From sequence record PZ386977.1: a DNA stretch of 64,000 bases, one strand, 5' to 3'. Of the stretch, positions 3,923 through 51,126 are shown one piece after another (within the stretch, counting starts at the first letter, position 1; the number at the start of each line of letters is the position of its first letter). The notes beneath the pieces are model-generated. The model did not search any database. It had not been told where the DNA came from and saw nothing but the letters and a program-made list of their open reading frames with translations. Source of the DNA: a phage. Position numbers and translations under genes: made by a program.

Positions 3923-6634
3923 TCAAAAATCGAACATATCGAACAGAGATGCTTTCTTCTCGTAATCGAGTTTCGCTGCTGATGTGAATCCTTCAAGTGG
4001 TTTAATAAATGTCTTCTCAAGGAGAACAGTGTAGTCCATCCAATGAAGTACGTCGTCTTTAATTAAATCTGTGATTTCAGTACCAGAAGGCCATGCGATA
4101 CATTTATCACCGAATGGGTTTCCTTCACGTAAAGGCAGAACATATACCTTTTCGCCTTCTACAACTTGTGGAGCATCAATATTACCTTTGATAGCCCGGT
4201 TATACGTCAGAATTCCACGAATATGGAACGGACATTTTGGACCAGGGAATCCACCTACATCATATTTAGCAATGTTATTCGCAGAAGATACCGACGCGAT
4301 GCTAATATAATTCAATTGACGGAATTCTTTTTCAAACTCTTTAAAATATTCTTGTAATGATTCTTCACCTTCTTGAAGCATACGACGAATACATTCTTTA
4401 AGAGCTTTCTGTACCGCTTTAGGAGTTGAAGATTTCTGTGTTTCGAGACCCATGATTTTGAGTTTAGGCTCAGCGTAACGAGTACCTTCCATATCCCACA
4501 CGTTTAATGCGTAACGTTTCTTACCAGTCCAGAATCCACCAATACCTTTAGAGCCAAGTGGAGGACCAGCGATAGCTTCTCGGTCCATGAACATTAAGTG
4601 TTGTTTATTGTTCATGTATTCACACATTTCACGGAAACCTCTATCAATAGCAGGTTCCATACGTTCACGAGCGAACTTATCTAAGAAGTCCACCCAATGG
4701 TTGGTATCACGGAATTTAGATTCACCAACCTTATCAATAATTTTATCAGCAGATACGTAAATAGAGTCTGTATCACCATATAGAACGAAAGCTTCACCTT
4801 CTGTACCACAAACTTCATTCAGATATTCATTAACTTTACGTTCAATCCACTGTAAAGCCATTTGCCCGAATGTTGTGATTGCAGTAGCATTACGCAAATC
4901 ATAATAACGGAACCAAACGTTGCCAAGTGCACCATAAAGTGAGTTGATAAGCAATTTACGGTTAATTTGTGCAGTCATACCTGCAACTTCAGTACGTTGA
5001 GCTCTAAACAACATTTCATTAAGAGATTTAGCAGACAACTTTTTAATCTTTTCTTTAATCTCATCGCTGAAGTCGAAACGATAATCAACATCTAACGGTT
5101 CGTCAACAGAAAGATTAGGATTATGCAATGCCTCTTTAATTATTTCACCATTACGTTGAGCTGCAAGCATGTAACCTTTATGTTCTTTACGTTGATTAAA
5201 GACCTTAGTGATTTCAGTTGGAACTACACCATCACGGTCTTTATAATACATCATGCCATTAGGAGAGCAGCTGTACACATCTGAAGGACGTTCAGCGATT
5301 GCGTTAATATAATCATGCAATGGAGCTACTTTAAACGTTCCTGCTATTGTTTCTGGGCTAATATTCACTTGGCGAATAATACTTGGATACAGAGATGTAA
5401 GGTCGAAACTCATTACATATTTGTATCGATTTGGAATAGGTTCCTTAACAAAAGCGCCAGGATAAGGTTGAACCGGGTGAGAACGACCTTGTGGAATCAC
5501 CTTGTTCTGCTCTTTAAGGCTATTAAAAATAATAGCATCCCATGTTTTAATTGGGCTGAACACAGATTGAATCTGTATCTTAGCATAATAACCCATGTCC
5601 AAACTCAAGTTGATGAACTGGCGCTTAGCATCAATTTGCAATACACGATACACGTCGATGATGTTATAAGAAATATATCGTTGGTGATTGCTTTCACGAA
5701 GCTTAGAAATAGGGCCGTCATATTTCAGTTTACCAACGTTCAATTCAAATTCTGAAATGTAATCCAGAGAATACGACGGTTGATTAGTAAAAGAGAATTT
5801 TTTGTAAAGGTCAATGTAATCAAGAACAGAGATACCGAACAATGTAATGATTTCACGAGAACCATACATGTTTTCGATAACTTTAACACGAGTTTTACGA
5901 TGTGGTGATAAACGTTTCGCAGTAGATTCACCAAAAATATTCTTGATTCTGTTATACACATATGGAATATCAAATGACTCAACGTTCCATCCAGTCAAAA
6001 TGACAGGAGTTTTCTGTTGCCAGAAGTTGAGATATTCCATCAACAATTCTTTTTCGTTATCGAACGGCATATAAATGATTTTATCGATAATTTCAGATGG
6101 AACTTCATCACCACCTTGTTCTTGAAGCTTAGCAGCGATTTCAATAGACCATTCTTCCACATTGCCGTATGGAGAATTCAATAGATCAAATACATAGAAC
6201 CTGTCGTCAATTGAGTCATAATGGGTGATAGCATCAATCGGATGTTTTGCTTGTGACGGCTCAGGGAACCCATCCGGAGATGTTACTTCGATGTCGAAGT
6301 TAGCCACACGAATTTTTGTATGGTCGTATTTGATTTCATAGTTATAAGTGTCAGACAAATACGCCAATTTGAAATCGTCCATGCCAAGTGCTTCAAGTCC
6401 GATATCTTCCATGCGTTTAATCCATTGGGAGGCATCACGCATATTAGCGAACAACTTACGAGTACACGGCTTACCGTAGATATCGAAATATTTCGTGGCC
6501 TGACTTTCTGGACAATGAGCAAACAATGATGGTTTATATTCTACTTCACGAGTACGTTCACGGCCATTAGAATCGATGTAACGTTCAAAAATTGAATCAC
6601 CAATCTGTTCAACCGTTAAGTAAAATTCTTTCAT
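3923..6634 (-). CDS. 43: DNA polymerase, family B (gp43)
   Basis: 903 aa; exo motif FDIEV; polymerase motifs SLYPS, KILINSLYG, YGDTDS, KKRY; N-terminus MKEFYLTVEQIGDSIFERYID matches my recollection of RB69 gp43. Confidence 0.97.
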   Translation of the reverse strand: MKEFYLTVEQIGDSIFERYIDSNGRERTREVEYKPSLFAHCPESQATKYFDIYGKPCTRKLFANMRDASQWIKRMEDIGLEALGMDDFKLAYLSDTYNYEIKYDHTKIRVANFDIEVTSPDGFPEPSQAKHPIDAITHYDSIDDRFYVFDLLNSPYGNVEEWSIEIAAKLQEQGGDEVPSEIIDKIIYMPFDNEKELLMEYLNFWQQKTPVILTGWNVESFDIPYVYNRIKNIFGESTAKRLSPHRKTRVKVIENMYGSREIITLFGISVLDYIDLYKKFSFTNQPSYSLDYISEFELNVGKLKYDGPISKLRESNHQRYISYNIIDVYRVLQIDAKRQFINLSLDMGYYAKIQIQSVFSPIKTWDAIIFNSLKEQNKVIPQGRSHPVQPYPGAFVKEPIPNRYKYVMSFDLTSLYPSIIRQVNISPETIAGTFKVAPLHDYINAIAERPSDVYSCSPNGMMYYKDRDGVVPTEITKVFNQRKEHKGYMLAAQRNGEIIKEALHNPNLSVDEPLDVDYRFDFSDEIKEKIKKLSAKSLNEMLFRAQRTEVAGMTAQINRKLLINSLYGALGNVWFRYYDLRNATAITTFGQMALQWIERKVNEYLNEVCGTEGEAFVLYGDTDSIYVSADKIIDKVGESKFRDTNHWVDFLDKFARERMEPAIDRGFREMCEYMNNKQHLMFMDREAIAGPPLGSKGIGGFWTGKKRYALNVWDMEGTRYAEPKLKIMGLETQKSSTPKAVQKALKECIRRMLQEGEESLQEYFKEFEKEFRQLNYISIASVSSANNIAKYDVGGFPGPKCPFHIRGILTYNRAIKGNIDAPQVVEGEKVYVLPLREGNPFGDKCIAWPSGTEITDLIKDDVLHWMDYTVLLEKTFIKPLEGFTSAAKLDYEKKASLFDMFDF

Positions 6635-10832: not shown

Positions 10833-12517
10833 GAGGCTTTCATTACAGTAAATCGTCCAACTTTACTCATCTGAAGATGTTGTCCATACGCTTGTGGGTC
10901 ATGGTCTCTGTGACTAATTATAAACACGTTTGCATCGGTTAGAGAGTTAAGAATTGTTGAAATAGCTTTAATACCTTCAGAATCAGTCGCGGAATCCATG
11001 ACTTCGTCCATAATTAATGTATTGATTCTAACACCAGAGACCTTTTCAGCAATATCTCGCCATGTAAACAACAATGCGATATCGATACGTGCCTTTTCAC
11101 CTTGACTAAATGAAGCATAACTAAAATCTTCACGACCACGTGATTTTATAGATTCATTGAATTCTTCGTCAATAGAAAACACATAATCAGCTTCCATGAT
11201 TTTAAGGTAATGGTTAATCTGCTTGTTGAACAGAGGCACATATTTTTTAATGATAGCACCTTTAATACCAGAATCTTTTAACATATCTGTGATAATACCA
11301 CGATGGTATTTTTCAAGAACGATATCTGATTTTGTTTTAATGATTTTATCAAGTTCTTTTTGAAGCAAAGCTATCTCATCGGCATGGTCGATAAATTCAG
11401 CTGAGGCTTGTTCTATTGCAGCTTTAACTTTCTTAGCTTTATCAATAGTGGCAATCATTGCTTGTTTCTTGGTACGAATATCAGATGCAAGGTCCTGTTT
11501 AGTCTTAACATTAGCTCTATATTCGTCCACTAGGACACTCAGATTATCTCTGTGAGAGGTAAGTTGCTCGAATGAGTGATTACATTCATGAAGCTTATCG
11601 GTAATCTTAGAGACAATAGGATCACCCTGGTGCAACTGTGATGCACAAGTAGGACATGTGCCACCGTCATGATACATCTTAATAACTTTGTTATATGAGT
11701 CGATTTTAGATTTAATCAAGAATGCTTCTTGTCCGATCTTGTTGAATGCCTCAGTAGGGTCTTCGTCAAGAACGATATTAAGTAGACGCTCGTTAGCTTC
11801 TTCAATTTCTGCTTTTAATGACCGAGCTTCTTTGGCTAGGTCGTCATACATATTCTGTAGACGCGCTACATTATCACCAGATAATTTCTTTTGACGTTCG
11901 ATATTCTCATTATAAATCTTAATTTGTTGGATAACACCATCTTTCTTGGCATCGAGAACTTGTCCCTGGGAATTAAGTTCTCGAACTTGAGACTTATTGA
12001 TTTTATCCATTTCGGCAAGTGTTCCAACTTCTAATAAGTCTTCAACAAGCTTTCTGCGAGCAGGGGTGCTAAGAGCCATGAAAGGGGTATACCCTGCCGT
12101 CCCAAGCACAACGATCTGTTTAAAAGACGCGTATGACATTCCGATGCTACGTTCAAATTCTTCTTGGAAGTCGCGACTGCTGGCAGATTCATCAAGACGA
12201 ACACCGTCAACGGAGATTTCGAAAATATTGGGCTTTTGGCCACGTTTAATGAAGTATTTTTTATCATCGAATTCCATCCAAAGCTCAACTAAGAGCTCTT
12301 TCTTGTTCGTGCTATTAATGATTTGTCCTTTCTTAACATCACGAAATGGTTTACCGAAAAGTCCGAAAGTAATGGCTTCTAACATCGTAGATTTACCACC
12401 GCCATTTTTACCAGTGATTAATGTCTTTTGGACTTTATCTAATTGGATATCAATAGGATTCCCACCTACCGACATGATGTTTTGATAACGAACACGATTT
12501 AATTTAAATGATTTCAT
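10829..12517 (-). CDS. 46: recombination endonuclease subunit gp46 (Rad50/SbcC-like)
   Basis: 562 aa; Walker A GKNGGGKST, long coiled coil, C-terminal signature/D-loop LIMDEV. Confidence 0.95.
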   Translation of the reverse strand: MKSFKLNRVRYQNIMSVGGNPIDIQLDKVQKTLITGKNGGGKSTMLEAITFGLFGKPFRDVKKGQIINSTNKKELLVELWMEFDDKKYFIKRGQKPNIFEISVDGVRLDESASSRDFQEEFERSIGMSYASFKQIVVLGTAGYTPFMALSTPARRKLVEDLLEVGTLAEMDKINKSQVRELNSQGQVLDAKKDGVIQQIKIYNENIERQKKLSGDNVARLQNMYDDLAKEARSLKAEIEEANERLLNIVLDEDPTEAFNKIGQEAFLIKSKIDSYNKVIKMYHDGGTCPTCASQLHQGDPIVSKITDKLHECNHSFEQLTSHRDNLSVLVDEYRANVKTKQDLASDIRTKKQAMIATIDKAKKVKAAIEQASAEFIDHADEIALLQKELDKIIKTKSDIVLEKYHRGIITDMLKDSGIKGAIIKKYVPLFNKQINHYLKIMEADYVFSIDEEFNESIKSRGREDFSYASFSQGEKARIDIALLFTWRDIAEKVSGVRINTLIMDEVMDSATDSEGIKAISTILNSLTDANVFIISHRDHDPQAYGQHLQMSKVGRFTVMKAS

Positions 12518-12768
12518 ATGTATTCTCTTCGAATGAAGTCCTCTACATATTTTAACATGTCATCTCTATCAGCAAAATATTCATCTAGTTCTGCATACAT
12601 AACAACACCTGGTGCGTACTCACAGGTAACATACATTGTTCCAAAGAAACGAGGAGTTGATTCCTCGTAATTCTCAGTCCATTCAACGATACCAATATAA
12701 CCGTCACCAATACTAAATTCATGACGATGGATTTCATAATCAGTCTTCGTCATTATACGCATCCTCAA
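12514..12768 (-). CDS. hypothetical protein (46.1-like)
   Basis: 84-aa ORF, ATGA overlap with 46. Confidence 0.5.
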   Translation of the reverse strand: MRMRIMTKTDYEIHRHEFSIGDGYIGIVEWTENYEESTPRFFGTMYVTCEYAPGVVMYAELDEYFADRDDMLKYVEDFIRREYI

Positions 12769-12997
12769 TACACGCTTCGGCCATTTTAAGAATAGAGCCA
12801 GGAGTATCGTTGTCCATTATATTAAAGCTAAATTCAATAGCCCAGTCGGTACAGACATGAACGGCTTTAACTTCATTGCCTTCAACGCGTAATGGCTCAA
12901 TCCAATACTTGATAGTGTTCTCGAATCCATCATCATCTTTAACGTCCATTTCAACTTCAAGCCTGAGTCCAGCATTGTTAAATTCATCTAAAGTCAT
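12740..12997 (-). CDS. hypothetical protein (46.2-like)
   Basis: 85-aa acidic ORF. Confidence 0.5.
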   Translation of the reverse strand: MTLDEFNNAGLRLEVEMDVKDDDGFENTIKYWIEPLRVEGNEVKAVHVCTDWAIEFSFNIMDNDTPGSILKMAEACIEDAYNDED

Positions 12998-16759: not shown

Positions 16760-16822
16760 GATATTTTCCTCATTTTAAGACGATAGGAAGATAATAACAC
16801 GTCTTCCTATCGTTGTACATTA

Positions 16823-23167: not shown

Positions 23168-23427
23168 TTAAAATATTCTCGCAGTTGGTCAAATCCACCA
23201 ATATGACTTCCATCAGGAGCAAATACCTGAGGCATAGTCAATCCAACTTGTGATTCACGTCCTAGTTTATTCAGAAGCTCGTCAATTTTTTCTTCATCAA
23301 ATACACCTTTCTCTGGCATCACGTTAATGAATTCGAACGGCTGTTTCTTAACAGTCAGCAATCGTTTCGCATTATCACAATAAATGCATTTATGAATAGT
23401 AGAGTCATACCCGTACACTTTAAACAT
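23164..23427 (-). CDS. nrdC: thioredoxin NrdC
   Basis: MFKVYGYDSTIHKCIYCDNAKRLL...GLTMPQVFAPDGSHIGGFDQLREYFK matches T4 NrdC; start at internal ATG. Confidence 0.9.
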   Translation of the reverse strand: MFKVYGYDSTIHKCIYCDNAKRLLTVKKQPFEFINVMPEKGVFDEEKIDELLNKLGRESQVGLTMPQVFAPDGSHIGGFDQLREYFK

Positions 23428-23833
23428 TATTTTTCCTTTCATCAATTAAATATGCAATGCCAAATACAATACATGTAATAAAACCTGTGATACAGATAGA
23501 AACCAACAACACTGTACCAAAGAACCAAATCAAGTTATCTTTAGTAGTTTGTTTGATATCCATCTCACGAATTTCTATAGCTATCGTATCACCTTTATTC
23601 AGAAGCGTATAAAACGATGGCGATACACGCCTGTCAAAAACTCGTCCTTGCTCATCTTTATAGACTGCAATAAATTCTAAATTAGAATATTTTCCTGTAG
23701 ATTGGCCTGAGATTAATTCCACTACCTCCACAGGAATTACTTTAGTTTCCATGTAAGTATTCTGGCTGTTCCAAATGAATGGAATAACGGCAAAAACTAA
23801 AGCTGCGATAAAACAACGAAGGCTATATCTCAT
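23420..23833 (-). CDS. membrane protein
   Basis: 137 aa with N- and C-terminal hydrophobic helices. Confidence 0.5.
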   Translation of the reverse strand: MRYSLRCFIAALVFAVIPFIWNSQNTYMETKVIPVEVVELISGQSTGKYSNLEFIAVYKDEQGRVFDRRVSPSFYTLLNKGDTIAIEIREMDIKQTTKDNLIWFFGTVLLVSICITGFITCIVFGIAYLIDERKNNV

Positions 23834-24138
23834 TATAATGTTCTCTCAAATTTGTGGAAGCATTTACGACATTTCAATTTCAAGTTATCAGTGGTCCAGT
23901 TAACCAGTTGGACTTGGATAGTTCCACATTCCGGGCATGGATGTTTTGCTGCCGATTTGGCAGCATTTTCACGTCGTTCAACCATTTTCATTATTTCGTT
24001 CCATGCCGGAGGAACGAACTCTTCTTCACCGTGGATTTTATCTCGCTGAACAAATTCAATCTTTGAACTATCGTCAATAAACTTAACCAAGCCATGATTA
24101 GTGCTCATATCAATATCCTCTAAAAGACGTAGTTTCAT
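23833..24138 (-). CDS. zinc-ribbon protein
   Basis: 101 aa; CPECG...CRKC. Confidence 0.5.
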   Translation of the reverse strand: MKLRLLEDIDMSTNHGLVKFIDDSSKIEFVQRDKIHGEEEFVPPAWNEIMKMVERRENAAKSAAKHPCPECGTIQVQLVNWTTDNLKLKCRKCFHKFERTL

Positions 24139-25088
24139 TATAACACCTCAATGGCATTTCGTAAACCGTCCGCTTTCGCATTCAGAGCTTTTAACGATTT
24201 AGTTTGTTCTTTAATCTGGGCTTCGACTTCTTTCAGACGAGATTTGAGGTACTCACGTTCTTCGCTCAAGTTGTCAACTTTTTCTACTTTAGGTTCTTTA
24301 ATAGTCTTAAGTTTATACTCGTTAGGGTTCTTCAACTTAATTCGGGTACGAGAACTATATAACATTGAACCGTTATCTTCGGATTCGTCGAACGTTTCAA
24401 CAACATCCATAGTCTCTAACAATGTAATAAGTTTATAAGACAACGAACGAATAGTTTTGTTGTGCTTATTAATTTCTTCGGCTTTCATGGTACCGAGATT
24501 ACGTGAGTAGTAATAAGGAACCTGGATATCAATTGATAATGATGCGTTACCATTACCAGTTGGTTTGAATACTGCAGTAACCCAATCTTTAACATGAACT
24601 TTATTTGTACGGCCATCACCGCCAGTGAATAATTTACGAGAATGTTTAAAAAGCATATTCACTTGTTTATTGAATTCACAAGCAAATTTATCAGCAAATT
24701 TAGTTTCAGGAATGGTAGATAACCAATCAGCCAAATGAGTCTTTTTAACATCATTAACAATAGTGAATTCAACCAAATCGGTTTTAGATGTCACAGATTT
24801 AATAAAGCTCGGCTTCATAAAGTTTTTAATGTTATCGCGAGCTACAGTAGAAGATAATAAACGAGAACGTTTGAACCATTGAAGCAGGGTCCCTAATGAA
24901 TGAGAATACGCATTCTGAGTATCTTTACAGATATGATTTTCTTGGCCTGTGTATGTACCAAAATCGCGAAGAATACCACTTACTACATCTCGGTGCGGAA
25001 CATCAAATCCTAGTGCACCAGAAGCGCGCTGAGCATGAACGTTAGCGATAAGACCGGCAAAGTATTCAATGTAATGTGAACGTGTCAT
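24138..25088 (-). CDS. hypothetical protein with C-terminal coiled coil
   Basis: 316-aa ORF with own early promoter. Confidence 0.55.
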   Translation of the reverse strand: MTRSHYIEYFAGLIANVHAQRASGALGFDVPHRDVVSGILRDFGTYTGQENHICKDTQNAYSHSLGTLLQWFKRSRLLSSTVARDNIKNFMKPSFIKSVTSKTDLVEFTIVNDVKKTHLADWLSTIPETKFADKFACEFNKQVNMLFKHSRKLFTGGDGRTNKVHVKDWVTAVFKPTGNGNASLSIDIQVPYYYSRNLGTMKAEEINKHNKTIRSLSYKLITLLETMDVVETFDESEDNGSMLYSSRTRIKLKNPNEYKLKTIKEPKVEKVDNLSEEREYLKSRLKEVEAQIKEQTKSLKALNAKADGLRNAIEVL

Positions 25089-25116: not shown

Positions 25117-25146
25117 ATTATACTCCGACCATCCTTGGTTGTAAAC
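25117..25146 (-). promoter_or_regulatory. early promoter GTTTACA-N17-TATAAT
   Basis: minus-strand GTTTACAACCAAGGATGGTCGGAGTATAAT upstream of 25088 start. Confidence 0.55.
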
Positions 25147-25150
25147 TATT

Positions 25151-26110
25151 TTATGATTTTAATGCATTCATTGCGTTAAAAAGTTTAGAATACTGCAACT
25201 GGAGATTCGTTACAACACTTTGAGCATCACGAAGCTTAGCTTGTGCTTTGTCAAGTTCAACAGACAGTTGGTCCATAGTGACCTTGATTTGATTGTAATG
25301 GTAATCTTCGACCGGAAGAAGGTCATTAGAAACATTTAGTTTTACTGCAGACAGTTTGCACACATTTGGCGAACCTTTAAACATTGATTTACCCGAAGTA
25401 GAATAAGCACTTAGGACTTCGGCCTGTTCAATTGGGGTCCCAGTAAGCGATGCTTCAAACAATGCATTTTCCTTTTTAAGATTTTGATAGTATTCAGAGT
25501 CTTTGTGCCACCATGGCGCAGGAACCTTTTTACCAATAGATACACGAGCCTGGATAGCGATATGGCCCTTATTCTTGATAGGGTCGACAATATTAAGCTC
25601 ACGAGAATAAATTGCTTTAATCTGGTGGATATTATCACCTAAAACTTCCAACGCTTGGTGGAATACACGAGCAACGTTATCATTCTTAGGTTTATACGTA
25701 AGAGTGAACTCATTCTCACTGATAACCATGATTTCCAACTTATCGTAAGTATATTTCAAATGTTTCATGTTAATTGCTTGAGGACGAATACGAGAAGCAA
25801 TGGCCATCAGATTGTTAAGGTTATTCCGGAACTGCTTAGCGAAATATTGTCCTTCACCGCCAATACAAAAATTACGAAGTTTCTGTTTGGCTAGTAAACG
25901 GCTGAACTCACCATTTTTAATGAACTCTTTAACGGGTGTGTTAGTAACGCATTCAAATTGAGTAAACGTACGAGAATTAATCCCATAATACGAACAGATT
26001 TCCTCAATCTCTTCAGGAGTCTTTACAGGCATACGGATAGGATTAGGTTCTGGGGTATATGCGTTCGAGGTAAATTCTTTGATAAGTTCTCTACGTGTAA
26101 TAAAAGCCAT
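25151..26110 (-). CDS. hypothetical protein with C-terminal coiled coil
   Basis: 319-aa ORF. Confidence 0.55.
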   Translation of the reverse strand: MAFITRRELIKEFTSNAYTPEPNPIRMPVKTPEEIEEICSYYGINSRTFTQFECVTNTPVKEFIKNGEFSRLLAKQKLRNFCIGGEGQYFAKQFRNNLNNLMAIASRIRPQAINMKHLKYTYDKLEIMVISENEFTLTYKPKNDNVARVFHQALEVLGDNIHQIKAIYSRELNIVDPIKNKGHIAIQARVSIGKKVPAPWWHKDSEYYQNLKKENALFEASLTGTPIEQAEVLSAYSTSGKSMFKGSPNVCKLSAVKLNVSNDLLPVEDYHYNQIKVTMDQLSVELDKAQAKLRDAQSVVTNLQLQYSKLFNAMNALKS

Positions 26111-26136
26111 TTTATATTCCTCATGTTGAAAAATTT

Positions 26137-26165
26137 ATTATACTCCAACCATCCTTGGTTGTACA
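26137..26165 (-). promoter_or_regulatory. early promoter TGTACA-N17-TATAAT (duplicate of the 25117 cassette)
   Basis: spacer ACCAAGGATGGTTGGAG differs by 1 nt from the 25117-25146 copy. Confidence 0.5.
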
Positions 26166-27161
26166 TCATTCCTTAAGAAGTTTTACTACCTGAATAAGAT
26201 TAGCTCGTTCTGTTTTATTTTTACCGTTTAAGCCTGCTAATCGTGAGATTTCATCGTCAGTTTGTTGAATAGTTACATTAAGTTCATTAATCAAAGCTTC
26301 AAAGTATTTGATTTGCTCAGCATGTTTTGATTCAAATTTCTGAACCGGAATAACGTCTTGGTTTAGTTCGTCAATAAGGTCTTTAAGAGCATCTTCTTGG
26401 TTGATATCATATTCAACTTCTTTTATTTCTTCAACGAGCTCGTCTTTATATCTAACGTCTTTTAGTCCTGGTGCTGGTCCTGAAATCTCTTCTTTAAGAG
26501 TACAAACATACCCAATACGGTATCCAGTGCCGTCTCGCTTGATATCAACTTCGTCGATAAATCCACAATGTTTAAGTCCAGAGCCGATTATGTCAAAATA
26601 TCCTTGACGTCGTCCTTCAAACGTTACACGAACTACTAAGATAGTTTTGCCACCAACCTTTTGAAGCTCACATTTATAAAAGTTTGTTGAACCTGAATAA
26701 CGTGGATGAGTTTTAAAGTTCATCTGACGATCTAGGCCCATTTGTAAACGCGCTGTTACAGCCATAAAACGTGTTTGGTTCTCGTTAAGATGAGCAACGA
26801 TCCATTTCAAAGGCATTTTACACTGTTCACGACCGAACAAATCAGTACGTCCTAGATTACGCAGGATGTTGTTAGAGTTAATCATCGACAGAACGTTAAG
26901 TTTATTCAGCGCGCTGAAGATTCCATCAGCCATTGATTTTCCATAACCTTTACACGCTTTAATAAGTGCTCGTGGCAGATTAGTATAGATTTCAGACGGC
27001 ATATGAAAATCAAATTTACTAGTCAGTAATTGATGAACTTGGATAGCAATTTGCTCATAATTAAGTGCTCTGCGATCGTTATGGTCTTTAAACCACACTT
27101 TAATCTGTGAAGCACATAAACCGTTAATTTCATGTTTTACCGCATCAGATGTAATGCTCAT
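26166..27161 (-). CDS. hypothetical protein with C-terminal coiled coil
   Basis: 331-aa ORF. Confidence 0.55.
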   Translation of the reverse strand: MSITSDAVKHEINGLCASQIKVWFKDHNDRRALNYEQIAIQVHQLLTSKFDFHMPSEIYTNLPRALIKACKGYGKSMADGIFSALNKLNVLSMINSNNILRNLGRTDLFGREQCKMPLKWIVAHLNENQTRFMAVTARLQMGLDRQMNFKTHPRYSGSTNFYKCELQKVGGKTILVVRVTFEGRRQGYFDIIGSGLKHCGFIDEVDIKRDGTGYRIGYVCTLKEEISGPAPGLKDVRYKDELVEEIKEVEYDINQEDALKDLIDELNQDVIPVQKFESKHAEQIKYFEALINELNVTIQQTDDEISRLAGLNGKNKTERANLIQVVKLLKE

Positions 27162-27223
27162 AACTATTTCCTCAGATTGAATTGGAACTCAAAACCATTA
27201 TAACCCGTCCTTGGGTAAAGCGT

Positions 27224-27751
27224 TTATGCGTGAACCGTCTTTAAACGTTCTTCAAATTTCCGAAGAGTACTAATACGTTCTGCTTTCTGTTTTGTATAGT
27301 TTGCAATACGTTCTGAAGTGAGAGCGTATCGTTCGTTTACTGTTTCTTTCATGAAGTCAGGGATTTCACGAGAAGCTTTAATTTCATCAAACTTATCGAG
27401 TACTGCCTGGTCTTCAGCGATTAAATTTTCGTACATCTCGATATCTTTCTTGATAAACTCGATATCTTCCTGGGTTACTTTGGATAAACGAGATGCTTTA
27501 TCCTTTTTGTACTGCTCGTTAGTTTCACGAGACCAGAATAATGTACGTTTTTTGTTAGTGTTTTTGTAGACTTCCACAATTCCAACTGAATCGATGATAA
27601 CAATCCAATTCCAGTGAGATTTGAAAATCTGACCTCCGTCCACGGTAATCTCGTTACCATAAGCAACATCGTTAAAGAACTTGCTTTGTGCTTCAGATTT
27701 AAATTTACCGTCGTTATAATTTACCAGGTTGAAAATATCTTTAGCGTTCAT
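27224..27751 (-). CDS. hypothetical protein
   Basis: 175-aa ORF. Confidence 0.5.
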   Translation of the reverse strand: MNAKDIFNLVNYNDGKFKSEAQSKFFNDVAYGNEITVDGGQIFKSHWNWIVIIDSVGIVEVYKNTNKKRTLFWSRETNEQYKKDKASRLSKVTQEDIEFIKKDIEMYENLIAEDQAVLDKFDEIKASREIPDFMKETVNERYALTSERIANYTKQKAERISTLRKFEERLKTVHA

Positions 27752-27809
27752 GTTTTACCTCCAGTAGTTGATAGGTCTATAATAACATAACCATAGACCT
27801 TGTAAACAA

Positions 27810-28235: not shown

Positions 28236-29237
28236 TTATTTCAGTAAAGTTACTTCAGAGATTTCCTCCCAACCATCTTTATCAGTTGAAATAAAATCTG
28301 CTACATAAAGAGCCGTACGTAATGATACATTGCGAAGACGAGATACGTTAGCCTTCATCCAGGACAATGCTTTGTACGTTTCAGCATCAGTCAAGCCACG
28401 TTTCTGCATCATGTCAGTAGATAATATTACATCTTCAACTCGAACCATAATCTCTTCATTAGAGTGTACTCCAAGATCGAGATATACTGAACGAGATACT
28501 AAAGCTTGAAGGTGAGGAGCAAGTTTCGAACCACGTTCTAACTCTTTATCGATATCAACGTTTGTAATGAAAACGATAGTACCTTCAAACTCAAATTCTT
28601 TATCGATACCCTTATCATCAAGATAAGATGATGCAGTGCTCCAGCAAACTTTGCGTTTATCACCGGTATCTAATGCGGCTTTAAGAAGGTTCAGGATGTC
28701 CATATCCGAGAATACGTCAACGTCGTCGATTAAGAGAACGCTGTCTGCATCACGGTTGAGCCAAAGTTGTTCGTAAAGGCCAATACCAGAGATTTTACCA
28801 TTAATGCTTTTGTATTTGATGAAACCATTATCATTAGCACTATTAAGTGCTTTATCCAGAGAATACGTCTTACCAATACCGGCTGCACCTGAAATAATGA
28901 GTGAACGAATTTTGCCATCGATAATGCCATTCGTCATCATGTTCATTACTTTAAAGCGTTTGTTGATACGAGTTTTCATATCTTCAGTGCTTTCAACAAC
29001 TGCAACTGGTGTTGTCTCAACTCCTTCCATTACGATGTCTGATTTGAAGACCCATACTCCACGTTCAGAACCATCAATCATAACGAAAATTTTACCATCA
29101 CCTAAGTGGGAACATTCAGGATTAAGCTTTGCTGGGAACCAGGTCTTTGTGGCAACATAAGATCCAGAGATTTCGTTATTACGATAGATACCTTTTTTGA
29201 TTTGAACGTTGAACATTTTATTCTCCAATTTACTCAT
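28236..29237 (-). CDS. P-loop NTPase
   Basis: 333 aa; Walker A SGAAGIGKTYS, Walker B VLLIDDVD. Confidence 0.6.
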   Translation of the reverse strand: MSKLENKMFNVQIKKGIYRNNEISGSYVATKTWFPAKLNPECSHLGDGKIFVMIDGSERGVWVFKSDIVMEGVETTPVAVVESTEDMKTRINKRFKVMNMMTNGIIDGKIRSLIISGAAGIGKTYSLDKALNSANDNGFIKYKSINGKISGIGLYEQLWLNRDADSVLLIDDVDVFSDMDILNLLKAALDTGDKRKVCWSTASSYLDDKGIDKEFEFEGTIVFITNVDIDKELERGSKLAPHLQALVSRSVYLDLGVHSNEEIMVRVEDVILSTDMMQKRGLTDAETYKALSWMKANVSRLRNVSLRTALYVADFISTDKDGWEEISEVTLLK

Positions 29238-29305
29238 TTCGTTTCGATAGGTCTATAATAACATATCCTAAAAGCATGTACACTACTTTTTTTAAAATAT
29301 TTTAA

Positions 29306-29332
29306 CCCCCTAAAGGGACCCGAAGGTCCCCA
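29306..29332 (-). terminator. stem-loop module (GGGACC-UUCG-GGUCCC) after stop codon
   Basis: 27-mer identical to 47507..47533; no clean U-tract, so may be a processing/stability hairpin rather than a terminator. Confidence 0.4.
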
Positions 29333-29633: not shown

Positions 29634-30623
29634 TTATTTATAGTAAGAATTATGATTTTCGAGATAGACTTGCTCAAGGAAATCATCCCAGAAACTCATA
29701 TCTACTTTTTGTTGCATACCGTTCTTAGCGGCTTGTTCTGATGCTTGTTCAACTTGGTCAACGATATCTTCTAGGAATTCTTGTACAGTTTTAAACGTAT
29801 GTTTACCAAGCTTAACATCGAGAATAAATGGAGCATCCTGAAGCGGGTAAACCAGGTCGCCGGTTTTGTAAATTTCCAATAATTGAAGTCCACCACGACA
29901 TGCATGACTCAATGCTTTCCAGTCAATACCTTCGTTAGCTTCCGCCTTACGAGCACGTTCACCATAGTTCTCTTCCAGTTTAACCAGGATGGCATTGAAC
30001 TCTTTATTGGTTAACGTGTCTTGGAATTTACGGTCTAACAGATTATAGAATGTTTGCTTACCTGTTTTCTCGTTTTCGGTTTCAACCCATGAAGCAAATT
30101 CACCTACAGGCAGAACATTCTTCATATGTGATAAACGAATTACTGCACCATTATCAAAGTATTGTCCCCATTCATTAGAACGTTTAAGGGCTTGACGAAG
30201 AACAGCCAGTCGAGAACCCTTGACACCGTATTTAGAAGCTTGCTTACGGACATACCCTAAATAAGATTTCATGTTAGTGGTATAGAAACGAGACCTGTTA
30301 TCTTGAATATACTTCCATACATCAGGCAAATCAGATTTAACTACTAGACTTGGTGGAGTGTGAAGCATATCTAATGCAACAGTTTCACCATCCGCAGCTA
30401 GTTTAAAGAAATATTTGAGACTATACAACTCATGGTCCACGTCGTCTTTTGTGTTCTTAGAAGATGTGTTATTCGTGTTCTTGCTCATATGTTCTTTAAC
30501 GTTACCTGTCAAGATATCACGAGCATGAGGGACATAAATTTCTTTAAAATCAACGTCAGATTCAGGAGTAGATGTTCCATAAAGGTGGCTACCAAAGTAG
30601 CTTTTCATAATTGTTTTCATCAT
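29634..30623 (-). CDS. Pol-beta-superfamily nucleotidyltransferase
   Basis: 329 aa; YFGSHLYGTSTPESDVDF = G[S]x10DxD motif, downstream LDML acidic motif. Confidence 0.55.
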   Translation of the reverse strand: MMKTIMKSYFGSHLYGTSTPESDVDFKEIYVPHARDILTGNVKEHMSKNTNNTSSKNTKDDVDHELYSLKYFFKLAADGETVALDMLHTPPSLVVKSDLPDVWKYIQDNRSRFYTTNMKSYLGYVRKQASKYGVKGSRLAVLRQALKRSNEWGQYFDNGAVIRLSHMKNVLPVGEFASWVETENEKTGKQTFYNLLDRKFQDTLTNKEFNAILVKLEENYGERARKAEANEGIDWKALSHACRGGLQLLEIYKTGDLVYPLQDAPFILDVKLGKHTFKTVQEFLEDIVDQVEQASEQAAKNGMQQKVDMSFWDDFLEQVYLENHNSYYK

Positions 30624-31645: not shown

Positions 31646-31978
31646 TTAAAGTTTCAACAAAATTCACCAAATCATTCAGACAAGCATCAACCTGTTTTTC
31701 ATAAAAGTCTTCGTTATCATTTACTGCATGATAAGCTACATCATTCAAATCTGAATCGGCTTCACGTAAGTTACGGATAAGTTCCATCAATTTATTAGCT
31801 TGTTCACGGGTCATTTTACCATACTCGTTTCAATAAGATTCACTATGCCGTTTACCATGTTATAAGTAAACATCGGATAATTGTATTGTACTACAACATA
31901 AGCGATAAGCAAAAGTTTCATTTTGTTCTCCATTCGTTTTGGTAGGACTACTATAACATAATCCTACCAAGATGTAAA

Positions 31979-42724: not shown

Positions 42725-42754
42725 ACTATAACATAGTCCTATAATTGTGTAAAC
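42725..42754 (-). promoter_or_regulatory. early promoter GTTTACA-N17-TATAGT embedded in ATAGGACT/AGTCCTAT palindrome
   Basis: minus-strand GTTTACACAATTATAGGACTATGTTATAGT. Confidence 0.55.
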
Positions 42755-44016: not shown

Positions 44017-44046
44017 ACTATAACATAGCCCTATCTTGTTGTAAAC
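44017..44046 (-). promoter_or_regulatory. early promoter GTTTACA-N17-TATAGT in palindrome (near-copy of 42725 and 50722 cassettes)
   Basis: GATAGGACTACTATAACATAGCCCTATC element. Confidence 0.55.
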
Positions 44047-46559: not shown

Positions 46560-46614
46560 TTGGTTGTTTATTATCCAACGAGAGCATTATACTCTGCTCT
46601 CAAGAGTTTGTAAA

Positions 46615-46842: not shown

Positions 46843-47121
46843 TTTGTTTTCCTCTTGATTTGATGTGATTACTATAACATAAACTTACTTAGATGTAAAT
46901 TATTTCTACGTCACCTTTAGCTGCTTTATAACCTTCAGCCCAAGATACAACAGAGTTTTTATCTGAGGATTCAAATTCAGGCATTGGACTTTCACCAATA
47001 TTCACACAGTATGTTTCTTCATTTTCATCGAACCAAATAATTAAAGTAGTCATTTTGTTTACTCCTCTGTAGTTGATAAGTCTATAGTATCACCATCCTT
47101 GGTGTTTGTACATCATTATTT

Positions 47122-50721: not shown

Positions 50722-50751
50722 ACTATAACATAGTCCTATCGGCATGTAAAC
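50722..50751 (-). promoter_or_regulatory. early promoter GTTTACA-N17-TATAGT embedded in perfect 10-bp-arm palindrome
   Basis: GATAGGACTACTATAACATAGTCCTATC at 50713..50740; the -35 overlaps the upstream stop codon. Confidence 0.55.
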
Positions 50752-51062
50752 TATTTTATGCCTTTAGATGAAATAGTATTCTGGCGTTTGACCCCTGTTT
50801 GTGAAAAATCGTGGTTATCGATTTGGTCGACTCGCATAACACCAAATGCAGATTTAATTTTAGCCTTTGAACCTTTTTTGATACTAATTACCATATAAGT
50901 ATCATTTTTCTTATATTCGAAATTTGTTACTTCAACGCCTTGATTAGAAATTGACTTAATAATAGCATTAGCGTATTCATCATCTAACGGGCCGTTAGTG
51001 TTAATAACAAAATTTTTATCCGCTTTAGTAGCTTCCGCGATAAACTCTTGATACGTTTTCAT
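50751..51062 (-). CDS. internal protein I-like protein with capsid-targeting leader
   Basis: 103 aa; starts MKTYQEFIAE; position next to 57B as T4 ipI. Confidence 0.7.
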   Translation of the reverse strand: MKTYQEFIAEATKADKNFVINTNGPLDDEYANAIIKSISNQGVEVTNFEYKKNDTYMVISIKKGSKAKIKSAFGVMRVDQIDNHDFSQTGVKRQNTISSKGIK

Positions 51063-51096: not shown

Positions 51097-51126
51097 ATAG
51101 TATCACACCATCATCCTTATGTAAAC
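51097..51126 (-). promoter_or_regulatory. early promoter GTTTACA-N17-TACTAT
   Basis: minus-strand GTTTACATAAGGATGATGGTGTGATACTAT upstream of 51062 start. Confidence 0.5.

Follow-up and report, generated by a model that had tools for sequence, protein, structure and literature searches.

PeSL-like promoter-hairpin cassettes in a Mosigvirus accessory array related to T4 nrdC.3-nrdC.6, and their probable role in gene loss

Introduction

The PeSL, or promoter-early stem-loop, of T4-type phages (Arbiol et al. 2010, PMC2839356; Comeau et al. 2014, PMC4122927) is a known kind of element that lets T4-like phages lose or swap genes. The T4/PST consensus for its promoter is TTTACW-N17-TAYWAT, with stem-loops commonly lying between the -35 and -10 hexamers (PMC2839356, PMC4122927). 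Degraded PeSLs have been mentioned at about 50K and 51K in PST (Comeau 2014, PMC4122927), positions near the starts of nrdC.3 and nrdC.4 in T4 (about 49.9 and 50.95 kb in the T4 record). These two genes belong to the accessory array nrdC.3-nrdC.6, of which one product, NrdC.5, is reported to rescue infection of cells carrying the Dsr1 defense (Srikant et al. 2022, PMC9391042). Here, we analyze a 64,000-nt stretch of sequence record PZ386977.1 (the window) from a Mosigvirus, a T4-like coliphage, in which three consecutive genes had been described, from the sequence alone, as unrelated ORFans acquired one after another, each as a module with its own promoter cassette.

Results

The three genes, which we call A, B and C, lie in the order C (NrdC.6-like), B (NrdC.5 family), A (NrdC.3), head to tail, downstream of a conserved neighbor, an NrdC.8 orthologue that anchors both the array and the cassette P_C:

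24138-25088, minus strand: gene A, open reading frame of 316 aa
25151-26110, minus strand: gene B, open reading frame of 319 aa
26166-27161, minus strand: gene C, open reading frame of 331 aa
27224-27751, minus strand: NrdC.8 orthologue, 83% identical to T4 NrdC.8 (phrog_2274)

The array shares synteny with nrdC.3 to nrdC.6 of T4 and with its Dhakavirus counterparts and, like the T4 genes, is positioned between nrdC.2 and nrdC.8; on gene order and homology, the segment is the Mosigvirus counterpart of the T4 nrdC.3-nrdC.6 accessory array. The Mosigvirus array differs from that of T4 in that NrdC.4 is missing, nrdC.7 is relocated beside nrdC, and B has a promoter cassette in front of it whereas T4 nrdC.5 has none. 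In both phages the genes are non-essential and are lost in natural and evolved phages, and the T4 homologues are dispensable accessory genes rather than core replication or morphogenesis factors. The intergenic cassettes, roughly 55-60 nt per gene, combine a promoter, a short hairpin and a Shine-Dalgarno sequence. A terminator scan of the gene strand from 24.1 to 27.8 kb returned zero sites between the A, B and C genes. From the sequence we infer that transcripts of each gene can arise both at its own promoter and by read-through.

None of the three proteins is an ORFan. Gene A encodes an orthologue of T4 NrdC.3 (56% identity over the full length of 316 aa, E 7e-118) that matches phrog_1435 at 6e-102 and has homologues in 654 phage records; a related-loci search with A returned 4 loci only. 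B matches Pfam DUF7235 over its full length (2e-122, 408.7 bits, profile positions 1-307 of 307, with a gathering cut-off of 30 bits), as T4 NrdC.5 also does (5e-126, 420.6 bits). The B family is NrdC.5 (phrog_2351), and the RB69 homologue of B carries that name; B and T4 NrdC.5 are only 25% identical. C is NrdC.6-like (phrog_2257, with PF26899 on its homologues) and shares 30% identity with T4 NrdC.6 over 271 aa (E 5e-18); its family is narrow, since an exhaustive profile search found only 15 proteins among 1.84 billion.

The N-terminal regions had been called unrelated, which holds at the level of BLAST but not under profile-profile comparison, which joins the families. In hhalign, NrdC.3 matches NrdC.4 with 97.4% probability (E 1e-11), and intermediates from the C profile match the NrdC.6 family at 98.7% (E 4e-16) and the NrdC.5 family at 97.1% (E 6e-11). 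A is linked to B and C through profile comparisons of shallow alignments, in which merged NrdC.3+4 matches merged NrdC.5+6 at 96.5% (E 9e-10). A, B, C and NrdC.4 thus appear to belong to a single divergent superfamily whose members share a conserved core and end in a coiled coil, and A, B and C would be ancient, distant paralogues of one another and distant relatives of the T4 nrdC.3, nrdC.5 and nrdC.6 products. This relationship and the synteny with the T4 and Dhakavirus arrays speak against serial acquisition of unrelated genes. A 27-nt DNA similarity between the A and B coding regions (D2) lies off the positions aligned by hhalign and is probably due to chance.

The C-terminal coiled coils of the original prediction are recovered as terminal helices in the AlphaFold models of B and C and as a heptad peak in A. 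The B model is poor (pLDDT 48.7) and has a long terminal helix at residues 267-318; that of C (pLDDT 73.6) has C-terminal helices at 281-330; and in A a crude heptad score is highest at residues 267-316, where the sequence is coiled-coil-like. C is predicted to consist of a helical N-domain, a beta-beta-alpha-beta-beta unit, a disordered linker and the C-terminal helices, and the order of secondary-structure elements is the same in the B and C models. The modeled coiled coil probably mediates oligomerization. A BFVD search with the C model matched uncharacterized proteins of about 300 aa from many T4-like phages; no solved protein proved structurally similar, and the B- and C-family sequence profiles and the A sequence gave zero matches to solved chains.

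Each gene is preceded by a promoter cassette of its own, as had been claimed, and related promoters occur elsewhere in the window:

25117-25145, minus strand: P_A cassette, TTTACA-ACCAAGGATGGTCGGAG-TATAAT with an N17 spacer; hairpin ACCA-AGGA-TGGT (25128-25139), then GGAG
26137-26165, minus strand: P_B cassette, TGTACA-ACCAAGGATGGTTGGAG-TATAAT with an N17 spacer; hairpin CAACCA-AGGA-TGGTTG (26146-26161)
27197-27227, minus strand: P_C cassette, TATAAT (27197-27202); hairpin ACCC(A)-AGGA-(C)GGGT (27203-27216); MotA-box-like AAACGCTTTA; no -35
47084-47112, minus strand: dispersed cassette at 47.1 kb, TGTACA-AACACCAAGGATGGTGA-TACTAT; hairpin CACCA-AGGA-TGGTG
51097-51125, minus strand: loosely related early promoter at 51.1 kb, TTTACA-TAAGGATGATGGTGTGA-TACTAT

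The near-identity of the spacer and TATAAT before A and B is borne out by a direct repeat of 43 nt, 84% identical and 1020 nt apart, which contains P_A and P_B and is the longest in the region; the two share a core of about 30 nt, TACAACCAAGGATGGT(C/T)GGAGTATAAT. Gene C ends in a TGA stop codon that overlaps the P_B -35 region. The 64-kb window has exactly three copies of the 12-mer ACCAAGGATGGT (at 25128, 26148 and 47092), all of them on the minus strand and inside promoter spacers, against about 0.01 exact copies expected of one given 12-mer in 128 kb by our own arithmetic; with up to two mismatches allowed, 7 copies were found versus 3.9 expected, which is not above chance. Scored against TTGACA-N17-TATAAT, P_A matches at 11/12 positions and P_B at 10/12, and both have 0-1 mismatch to the PeSL consensus TTTACW-N17-TAYWAT. 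A generic promoter scan of this AT-rich DNA showed no enrichment (20 found versus 23 expected in shuffles). By these matches, P_A and P_B are candidate sigma-70-type early promoters.

P_C is of a different kind. MotA-dependent middle promoters of T4 lack a -35 element and carry instead the MotA box, (a/t)(a/t)(a/t)TGCTTtA, which is centered near -30 and followed 11-13 bp downstream by the -10 sequence TAnnnT. P_C has CCCAAGGACGGGT before TATAAT and a MotA-box-like CGCTTTA where the -35 would be; its AAACGCTTTA differs from the MotA box by one mismatch (C for T) and lies 13 nt from TATAAT, and the equivalent site is annotated as a T4 middle promoter in the SA79RD record. In T4, RB14 and Dhakaviruses, the cassette located after the stop codon of nrdC.8 is orthologous to P_C. 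The "degenerate -35" reported for this third copy is indeed no -35 at all, but P_C is probably a middle promoter of MotA type rather than a decayed early one.

The window holds four copies of the cassette. The fourth, at 47.1 kb, lies upstream of a 54-aa open reading frame (46889-47053) and confirms the related spacer noted there, with the same type of hairpin and an exact copy of ACCAAGGATGGT. The resemblance claimed at 51.1 kb, upstream of a 103-aa open reading frame (50751-51062), is weaker: AAGGATG is present, but it is all that is common, and a different inverted repeat, AGGATGAT...ATCATCCT, spans the -10. Outside the window, other Mosigviruses have the same cassette near dexA, before unrelated genes of 164 and 165 aa, and in T4 and Dhakaviruses both the nrdC.3-type gene and nrdC.4 carry one.

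The spacer forms a short hairpin of the form stem-AGGA-stem, with an invariant core CAAGGA(U/C)G and a loop, AGGA, that is invariant in 14 variants, while the stems covary across Mosigvirus, Tequatrovirus and Dhakavirus. The hairpin is weak (a stem of 4-6 bp, -2.5 to -6.6 kcal/mol), and the predicted minimum free energy fold keeps it in every folded cassette RNA except the ESCO47 chimera. Its distance to the -10 varies among cassettes across the three genera. In an alignment of 12-14 variants, several of them picked after the motif was seen, 86% of cells are paired versus 62% in shuffles (0 of 500 shuffles reach 86%) and 18-42% in slid controls, with compensatory changes in four of the six hairpin pairs; the opposite strand has slightly more paired cells (93% versus 86%). 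This pattern argues that the hairpin is selected as a structure. Perfect AGGA-loop hairpins number 3 in the window against about 1 expected, and random sequences hold up to 6, so that we rejected a general enrichment; what stands out is not their number but the repeated 12-mer and the covariation across genera. No Rfam family covers this region.

A survey of presence and absence, which had been proposed as a check, shows that B is polymorphic among Mosigviruses: it is absent in 21 related phage records, where C and A are direct neighbors. In WFK and AV110, the two B-less phages that we examined closely, a single cassette remains that is an exact chimera of the left part of P_B and the right part of P_A, and the ESCO47 junction is chimeric within the hairpin loop. 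The cassettes do mark module boundaries, as the joined C-A arrangement and the chimeric cassettes show. The simpler reading of the polymorphism is that an ancestral gene was lost, not that a gene was gained, and the chimera in WFK and AV110 is, at the sequence level, the signature of PeSL recombination (Arbiol 2010, Comeau 2014).

Discussion

We consider it likely that the window cassettes belong to the PeSL class and that B was lost by recombination within their shared core. Like PeSLs, P_A and P_B combine an intergenic early promoter, stem-loop, Shine-Dalgarno sequence and start codon (P_C lacks the -35), and the P_A and P_B stem-loops lie between the -35 and -10, a common placement in PeSLs. 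The cassettes are likewise dispersed in multiple copies in hyperplastic regions beside variable or accessory genes, and indels end in them, leaving a chimeric copy. P_C, on its MotA-box promoter, resembles the "PmSL" variant of Vibrio phage nt-1. The cassettes also depart from described PeSLs: the stems of RB49 PeSLs are G/C tracts whereas those of the window are short and AU-containing, the window-type loop with its closing pairs (CAAGGAUG) is conserved between genera, and a terminator function is unlikely for the window hairpins. On this reading the cassettes are conserved, dispersed regulatory repeats that double as short homology patches for the phage recombination system, and recombination in the ~30-nt P_B/P_A core has removed B in a set of natural Mosigviruses with one chimeric cassette left behind. 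It is a clean case, found in nature, of gene loss mediated by PeSLs, in a genus without an earlier PeSL description.

The cassette hairpin, whose loop is conserved and whose arms covary, probably has a specific partner. One idea, which we regard as unlikely, is that it is a dedicated recognition element for an RNA- or single-stranded-DNA-binding protein, the closest motif being a host CsrA site. In SELEX, CsrA selected the consensus RUACARGGAUGU and favored GGA placed in a hairpin loop (Dubey et al. 2005, as summarized in PMC4347634). Like such sites, the cassettes present GGA in a short hairpin loop with CA...UG flanks, here the invariant CAAGGA(U/C)G between covarying arms, and a second GGA in each downstream Shine-Dalgarno sequence, roughly 35-45 nt away. 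In T4 and RB14 the cassette in front of nrdC.4 has the sequence ACAAGGAUGU, which matches ACARGGAUGU exactly, and CsrB has been reported to be stabilized in T4 infection (PMC9697503). On read-through polycistronic transcripts a CsrA dimer would bind the hairpin GGA together with that of the Shine-Dalgarno sequence (GAGGAA), so that translation of the next gene would be repressed or its stability altered, and transcripts from the local promoter, which lack the hairpin, would escape. That very absence sets the cassettes apart from known CsrA sites, as does the ACA that is invariant (100%) in SELEX immediately 5' of RGGA: the window copies read CCAAGGA, with CCA in its place, and ACAAGGA occurs only in the T4 and RB14 nrdC.4 cassettes. 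Shine-Dalgarno sequences with GGA are moreover generic in T-even phages, the window's 64 kb holds just the four copies, and the opposite strand pairs slightly better. The link to CsrA is a lead based on sequence resemblance. If it were true, T-even phages would wire NrdC.3/4/5/6, diversifying and probably anti-defense paralogues, to a host global regulator through read-through transcripts, and a single 30-nt element would serve in addition as promoter and recombination patch.

The near-identity of P_A and P_B could also result passively from an ancient tandem duplication of gene plus promoter, or from selection for a strong promoter, with no role in recombination or for the hairpin. A and NrdC.4 are paralogues that both carry the cassette in T4 and Dhakaviruses, which implies a gene-plus-promoter duplication in their history, and RNA polymerase constrains the -35 and -10 hexamers regardless. 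Such a passive origin is nonetheless improbable, since the proteins have diverged to at most 25% identity while the ~30-nt cores differ at 0-1 positions, and sigma-70 does not read the spacer base-specifically. The stems, moreover, covary around an invariant loop in three genera and at varied distances from the -10, the cassette precedes the unrelated genes near dexA as well, and natural deletions end exactly in the common core. That the hairpins are terminators or attenuators insulating each gene from upstream transcription, as in RB49 and phi1, where PeSL stem-loops terminate in reporter assays (PMC2839356), would fit their position just past the upstream gene's stop codon but is doubtful given the empty terminator scan and a conserved loop sequence that termination does not need, and we rejected an intrinsic (Rho-independent) terminator, with its G+C-rich stem and U-tract, because the stems are too short and weak and are followed by GGAGUAUAAU rather than a U-tract.

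The gene lost, B, belongs to the sole NrdC.x family with reported counter-defense activity, which fits the idea that the cassettes let T-even phages reshuffle their anti-defense repertoire. Because T4 NrdC.5 is reported to counter Dsr1 and the genes are dispensable, A, B and C would most likely be diversifying host-directed, probably anti-defense factors. By analogy, an anti-defense role is plausible for B, although at 25% identity to T4 NrdC.5 the anti-Dsr1 activity may not transfer; A and C are without functional precedent. Viewing NrdC.3/4/5/6 as one superfamily would turn four "hypothetical" families into a single structural and functional target. We rejected the assignment of A, B and C as thioredoxins, having detected no thioredoxin domain in them; in many GenBank records, every nrdC.x gene bears the label "thioredoxin".

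Promoter cassettes of the accessory array

Genes A, B and C are three consecutive minus-strand genes (316, 319 and 331 aa), each preceded by a promoter-hairpin cassette (P_A, P_B and P_C). These cassettes form a real set, ordinary in kind: promoter-early stem-loop (PeSL) elements in a Mosigvirus nrdC.3-nrdC.6 accessory array. PeSLs combine an early promoter with a stem-loop that commonly sits in the -35 to -10 interval, are dispersed in hyperplastic regions, and mediate indels (PMC2839356; PMC4122927); their T4/PST consensus is TTTACW-N17-TAYWAT, with degraded copies near 50-51 kb (PMC2839356; PMC4122927). The window cassettes share the early promoter with stem-loop, the dispersal and the indels, but differ from described PeSLs in their short, AU-containing stems, their conserved loop and an unlikely terminator function. 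The three ORFs lie where the original prediction placed them, and the minus strand carries every gene of the locus.

Genes and cassettes of the array
24138-25088, minus: gene A ORF
25145-25117, minus: P_A, TTTACA-ACCAAGGATGGTCGGAG-TATAAT
25151-26110, minus: gene B ORF
26165-26137, minus: P_B, TGTACA-ACCAAGGATGGTTGGAG-TATAAT
26166-27161, minus: gene C ORF
27222-27197, minus: P_C, CGCTTTA-CCCAAGGACGGGT-TATAAT

The near-identity noted for the promoter spacers is evident in P_A and P_B, which make up a 43-nt direct repeat, the longest in the region (84% identity, spacing 1020 nt). The 12-mer ACCAAGGATGGT has exactly three copies in the window, every one inside a minus-strand promoter spacer. The third, at 47.1 kb, bears out one of two related spacers proposed elsewhere, while the other, at 51.1 kb, has only AAGGATG in common with the cassettes. 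A generic promoter scan gave no enrichment in this AT-rich DNA; P_A and P_B rank among its best minus-strand matches. Between the A, B and C genes, no terminator-like site was found on the minus strand. In the orthologous intergenic regions compared, the P_C type always follows the nrdC.8 stop codon, whichever gene is next; it carries a MotA-box-like CGCTTTA 12-13 nt ahead of TATAAT, and one GenBank record annotates the site as a middle promoter.

The same cassette also precedes 164-aa and 165-aa genes, unrelated to NrdC.x, that adjoin dexA in other Mosigviruses, a region outside the window. A dexA-like gene on one IMG/VR Mosigvirus contig is closely followed, on its downstream side, by two copies (locus 1331-1352 and 1888-1909, spacing 557 nt); there, and in a phiE142-like locus, the copies flank the 164-aa gene and precede the 165-aa gene. 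Elsewhere in the window, many promoters of early type (TTTACA-N16/17-TATAGT or TATTAT) have a different inverted repeat across the -10 box, for example ATAGGACTatgtTATAGTAGTCCTAT (50722-50750, 44017-44045, 42725-42753, 31950-31978, 27779-27806, 16791-16819 and 46586-46614, all minus). They appear to be another, larger PeSL subclass, whose AGGA...TCCT belongs to the stem, not the loop.

A covarying hairpin with a conserved loop

Every orthologous or paralogous intergenic region compared, from T4, RB14, two Dhakaviruses and several Mosigviruses, has a stem-AGGA-stem arrangement.

Hairpin arms of individual cassettes (5' / 3')
P_B: CAACCA / TGGTTG
Window, 47.1 kb: CACCA / TGGTG
ESCO47 P_C: ACCCA / TGGGT
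T4, upstream of nrdC.3: AGCCA / TGGCT
T4, upstream of nrdC.4: CCACA / TGTGG
T4, upstream of nrdC.7, and Dhakavirus, upstream of nrdC.6: TACCA / TGGTA
Dhakavirus, upstream of nrdC.4: CATCC(A) / (C)GGATG

Among 12 distinct variants, compensatory changes occur in four of the six hairpin pairs, and 86% of cells are paired; the 500 shuffles give 62%, none attaining 86%, and slid controls give 18-42%. All variants keep the core CAAGGA(T/C)G unchanged. Judged by covariation in sequence, this is a hairpin with a conserved loop, newly identified here. Of the cassette RNAs folded, only the ESCO47 chimera is predicted not to form it. The hairpin is weak, at -2.5 to -6.6 kcal/mol, and no U-tract follows it. 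The opposite strand pairs slightly better (93% versus 86-88% on the gene-sense strand), and the hairpin may act on either strand. Every gene-sense A.C mismatch (window 25128-25139, 26146-26161, 27203-27216 and homologues) turns into a G.U/G.T wobble when the opposite strand is read; in one variant (VR20 type) the pattern is reversed.

The core is similar to the site selected for CsrA by SELEX, RUACARGGAUGU, whose GGA lies within a hairpin loop (PMC4347634). The T4 cassette that precedes nrdC.4 fits this site exactly; in the window copies CCA replaces the invariant ACA. We regard the likeness as a lead, not a result.

Relationships of A, B and C

The locus is the syntenic counterpart of T4 nrdC to nrdC.11, and its surrounding 3.5 kb matches 515 phage records, including Mosigvirus coliphages such as OLB35, Mizar and mar005P1 (97-98% identity). 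The three genes are not the ORFans they were taken for: A is 56% identical to T4 NrdC.3 over its full length; B, like T4 NrdC.5, is a full-length match to Pfam DUF7235, and its homologue in RB69 bears the annotation NrdC.5; C shares 30% identity with T4 NrdC.6, and PF26899 is present in relatives of C. Each is assigned a PHROG family of unknown function, and homologues (654, 152 and 742 phage records for A, B and C) are all restricted to T-even coliphages; an exhaustive search of 1.84 billion proteins with the C-family profile yielded no more than 15 representatives. Many GenBank records name every nrdC.x gene "thioredoxin", and one says "Mur ligase domain-containing"; neither domain was detected in A, B or C, and the labels appear to be annotation errors spread from gene names.

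Profile comparisons by hhalign link NrdC.3 to NrdC.4 (probability 97.4%, E 1e-11). Two of the families are bridged by four remote proteins that the C-family profile picked up: these match the NrdC.6 family at 98.7% (E 4e-16) and also the NrdC.5 family, at 97.1% (E 6e-11, 214 columns). The merged NrdC.3+4 and NrdC.5+6 profiles match each other (96.5%, E 9e-10). By these profile matches A, B and C, whose N-terminal regions had been thought unrelated, are distant paralogues, and NrdC.3, 4, 5 and 6 are unified, for the first time, as one putative superfamily. The C-terminal coiled coil originally predicted for each is supported in all three. Structure prediction was a check proposed originally. 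The AlphaFold model of B is poor (pLDDT 48.7) and that of C reaches pLDDT 73.6; both agree in element order, with a helical N-domain, then beta-beta-alpha-beta-beta, a disordered linker and a long helix at the C-terminus. No similarity to solved structures was found for A, B or C. BFVD matches of the C model are uncharacterised ~300-aa proteins from many T4-like phages, among them a 308-aa Tequatrovirus protein that is, by its length, probably NrdC.3.

T4 NrdC.6 (275 aa; locus 12067-12894) diverges from the RB14 protein (295 aa; locus 1968-2855) after residue ~259 and lacks the C-terminal coiled-coil segment; a frameshift in T4 may be the cause. A 27-nt stretch (78% identity) common to the coding regions of A (24613-24639, encoding …FTGGDG…) and B (25851-25877, …CIGGEG…) occupies positions other than those aligned by hhalign, and is probably a chance similarity.

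T4 NrdC.5 restores infection of Dsr1-carrying cells (PMC9391042), providing, by analogy, a counter-defence precedent for the B family only; A and C have none.

Loss of gene B

A presence/absence survey, also proposed originally, found B to be variable: C is joined directly to A in 21 records (junction query). The Mosigviruses WFK, AV110 and ESCO47 lack B. The single cassette of WFK and AV110 equals P_B up to TATAAT and P_A beyond it, and the ESCO47 joint falls within the hairpin loop; the cassettes mark recombination joints, and these chimeras are new evidence for loss of an NrdC.5-family gene. Serial acquisition, as first suggested, is at odds with the synteny with T4. Because NrdC.5-type genes hold the same place in T4 and Dhakaviruses, the simpler reading is that B is ancestral and B-less Mosigviruses are deletion derivatives.

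A natural deletion in phage ACG-C40 (locus 5305-5713) takes out nrdC.4 together with the greater part of both nrdC.5 and nrdC.3. What is left is a 72-aa N-terminal remnant of NrdC.5 fused to DNA for the last ~72 NrdC.3 residues; the deletion's breakpoints lie inside coding regions, outside cassettes. The window array is without nrdC.1 and nrdC.4. An NrdC.7-like membrane protein gene (23420-23833) directly adjoins nrdC in Mosigviruses; in T4 and RB14 nrdC.7 lies between nrdC.6 and nrdC.8. Upstream are genes for an NrdC.10-like P-loop/AAA protein (28236-29237) and an NrdC.11-like RlaP-type nucleotidyltransferase (29634-30623). The sole terminator-like hairpin on the gene strand within 23-29.5 kb (29304-29320) lies just ahead of the TGTACA-N16-TATTAT promoter of the NrdC.10-like gene.
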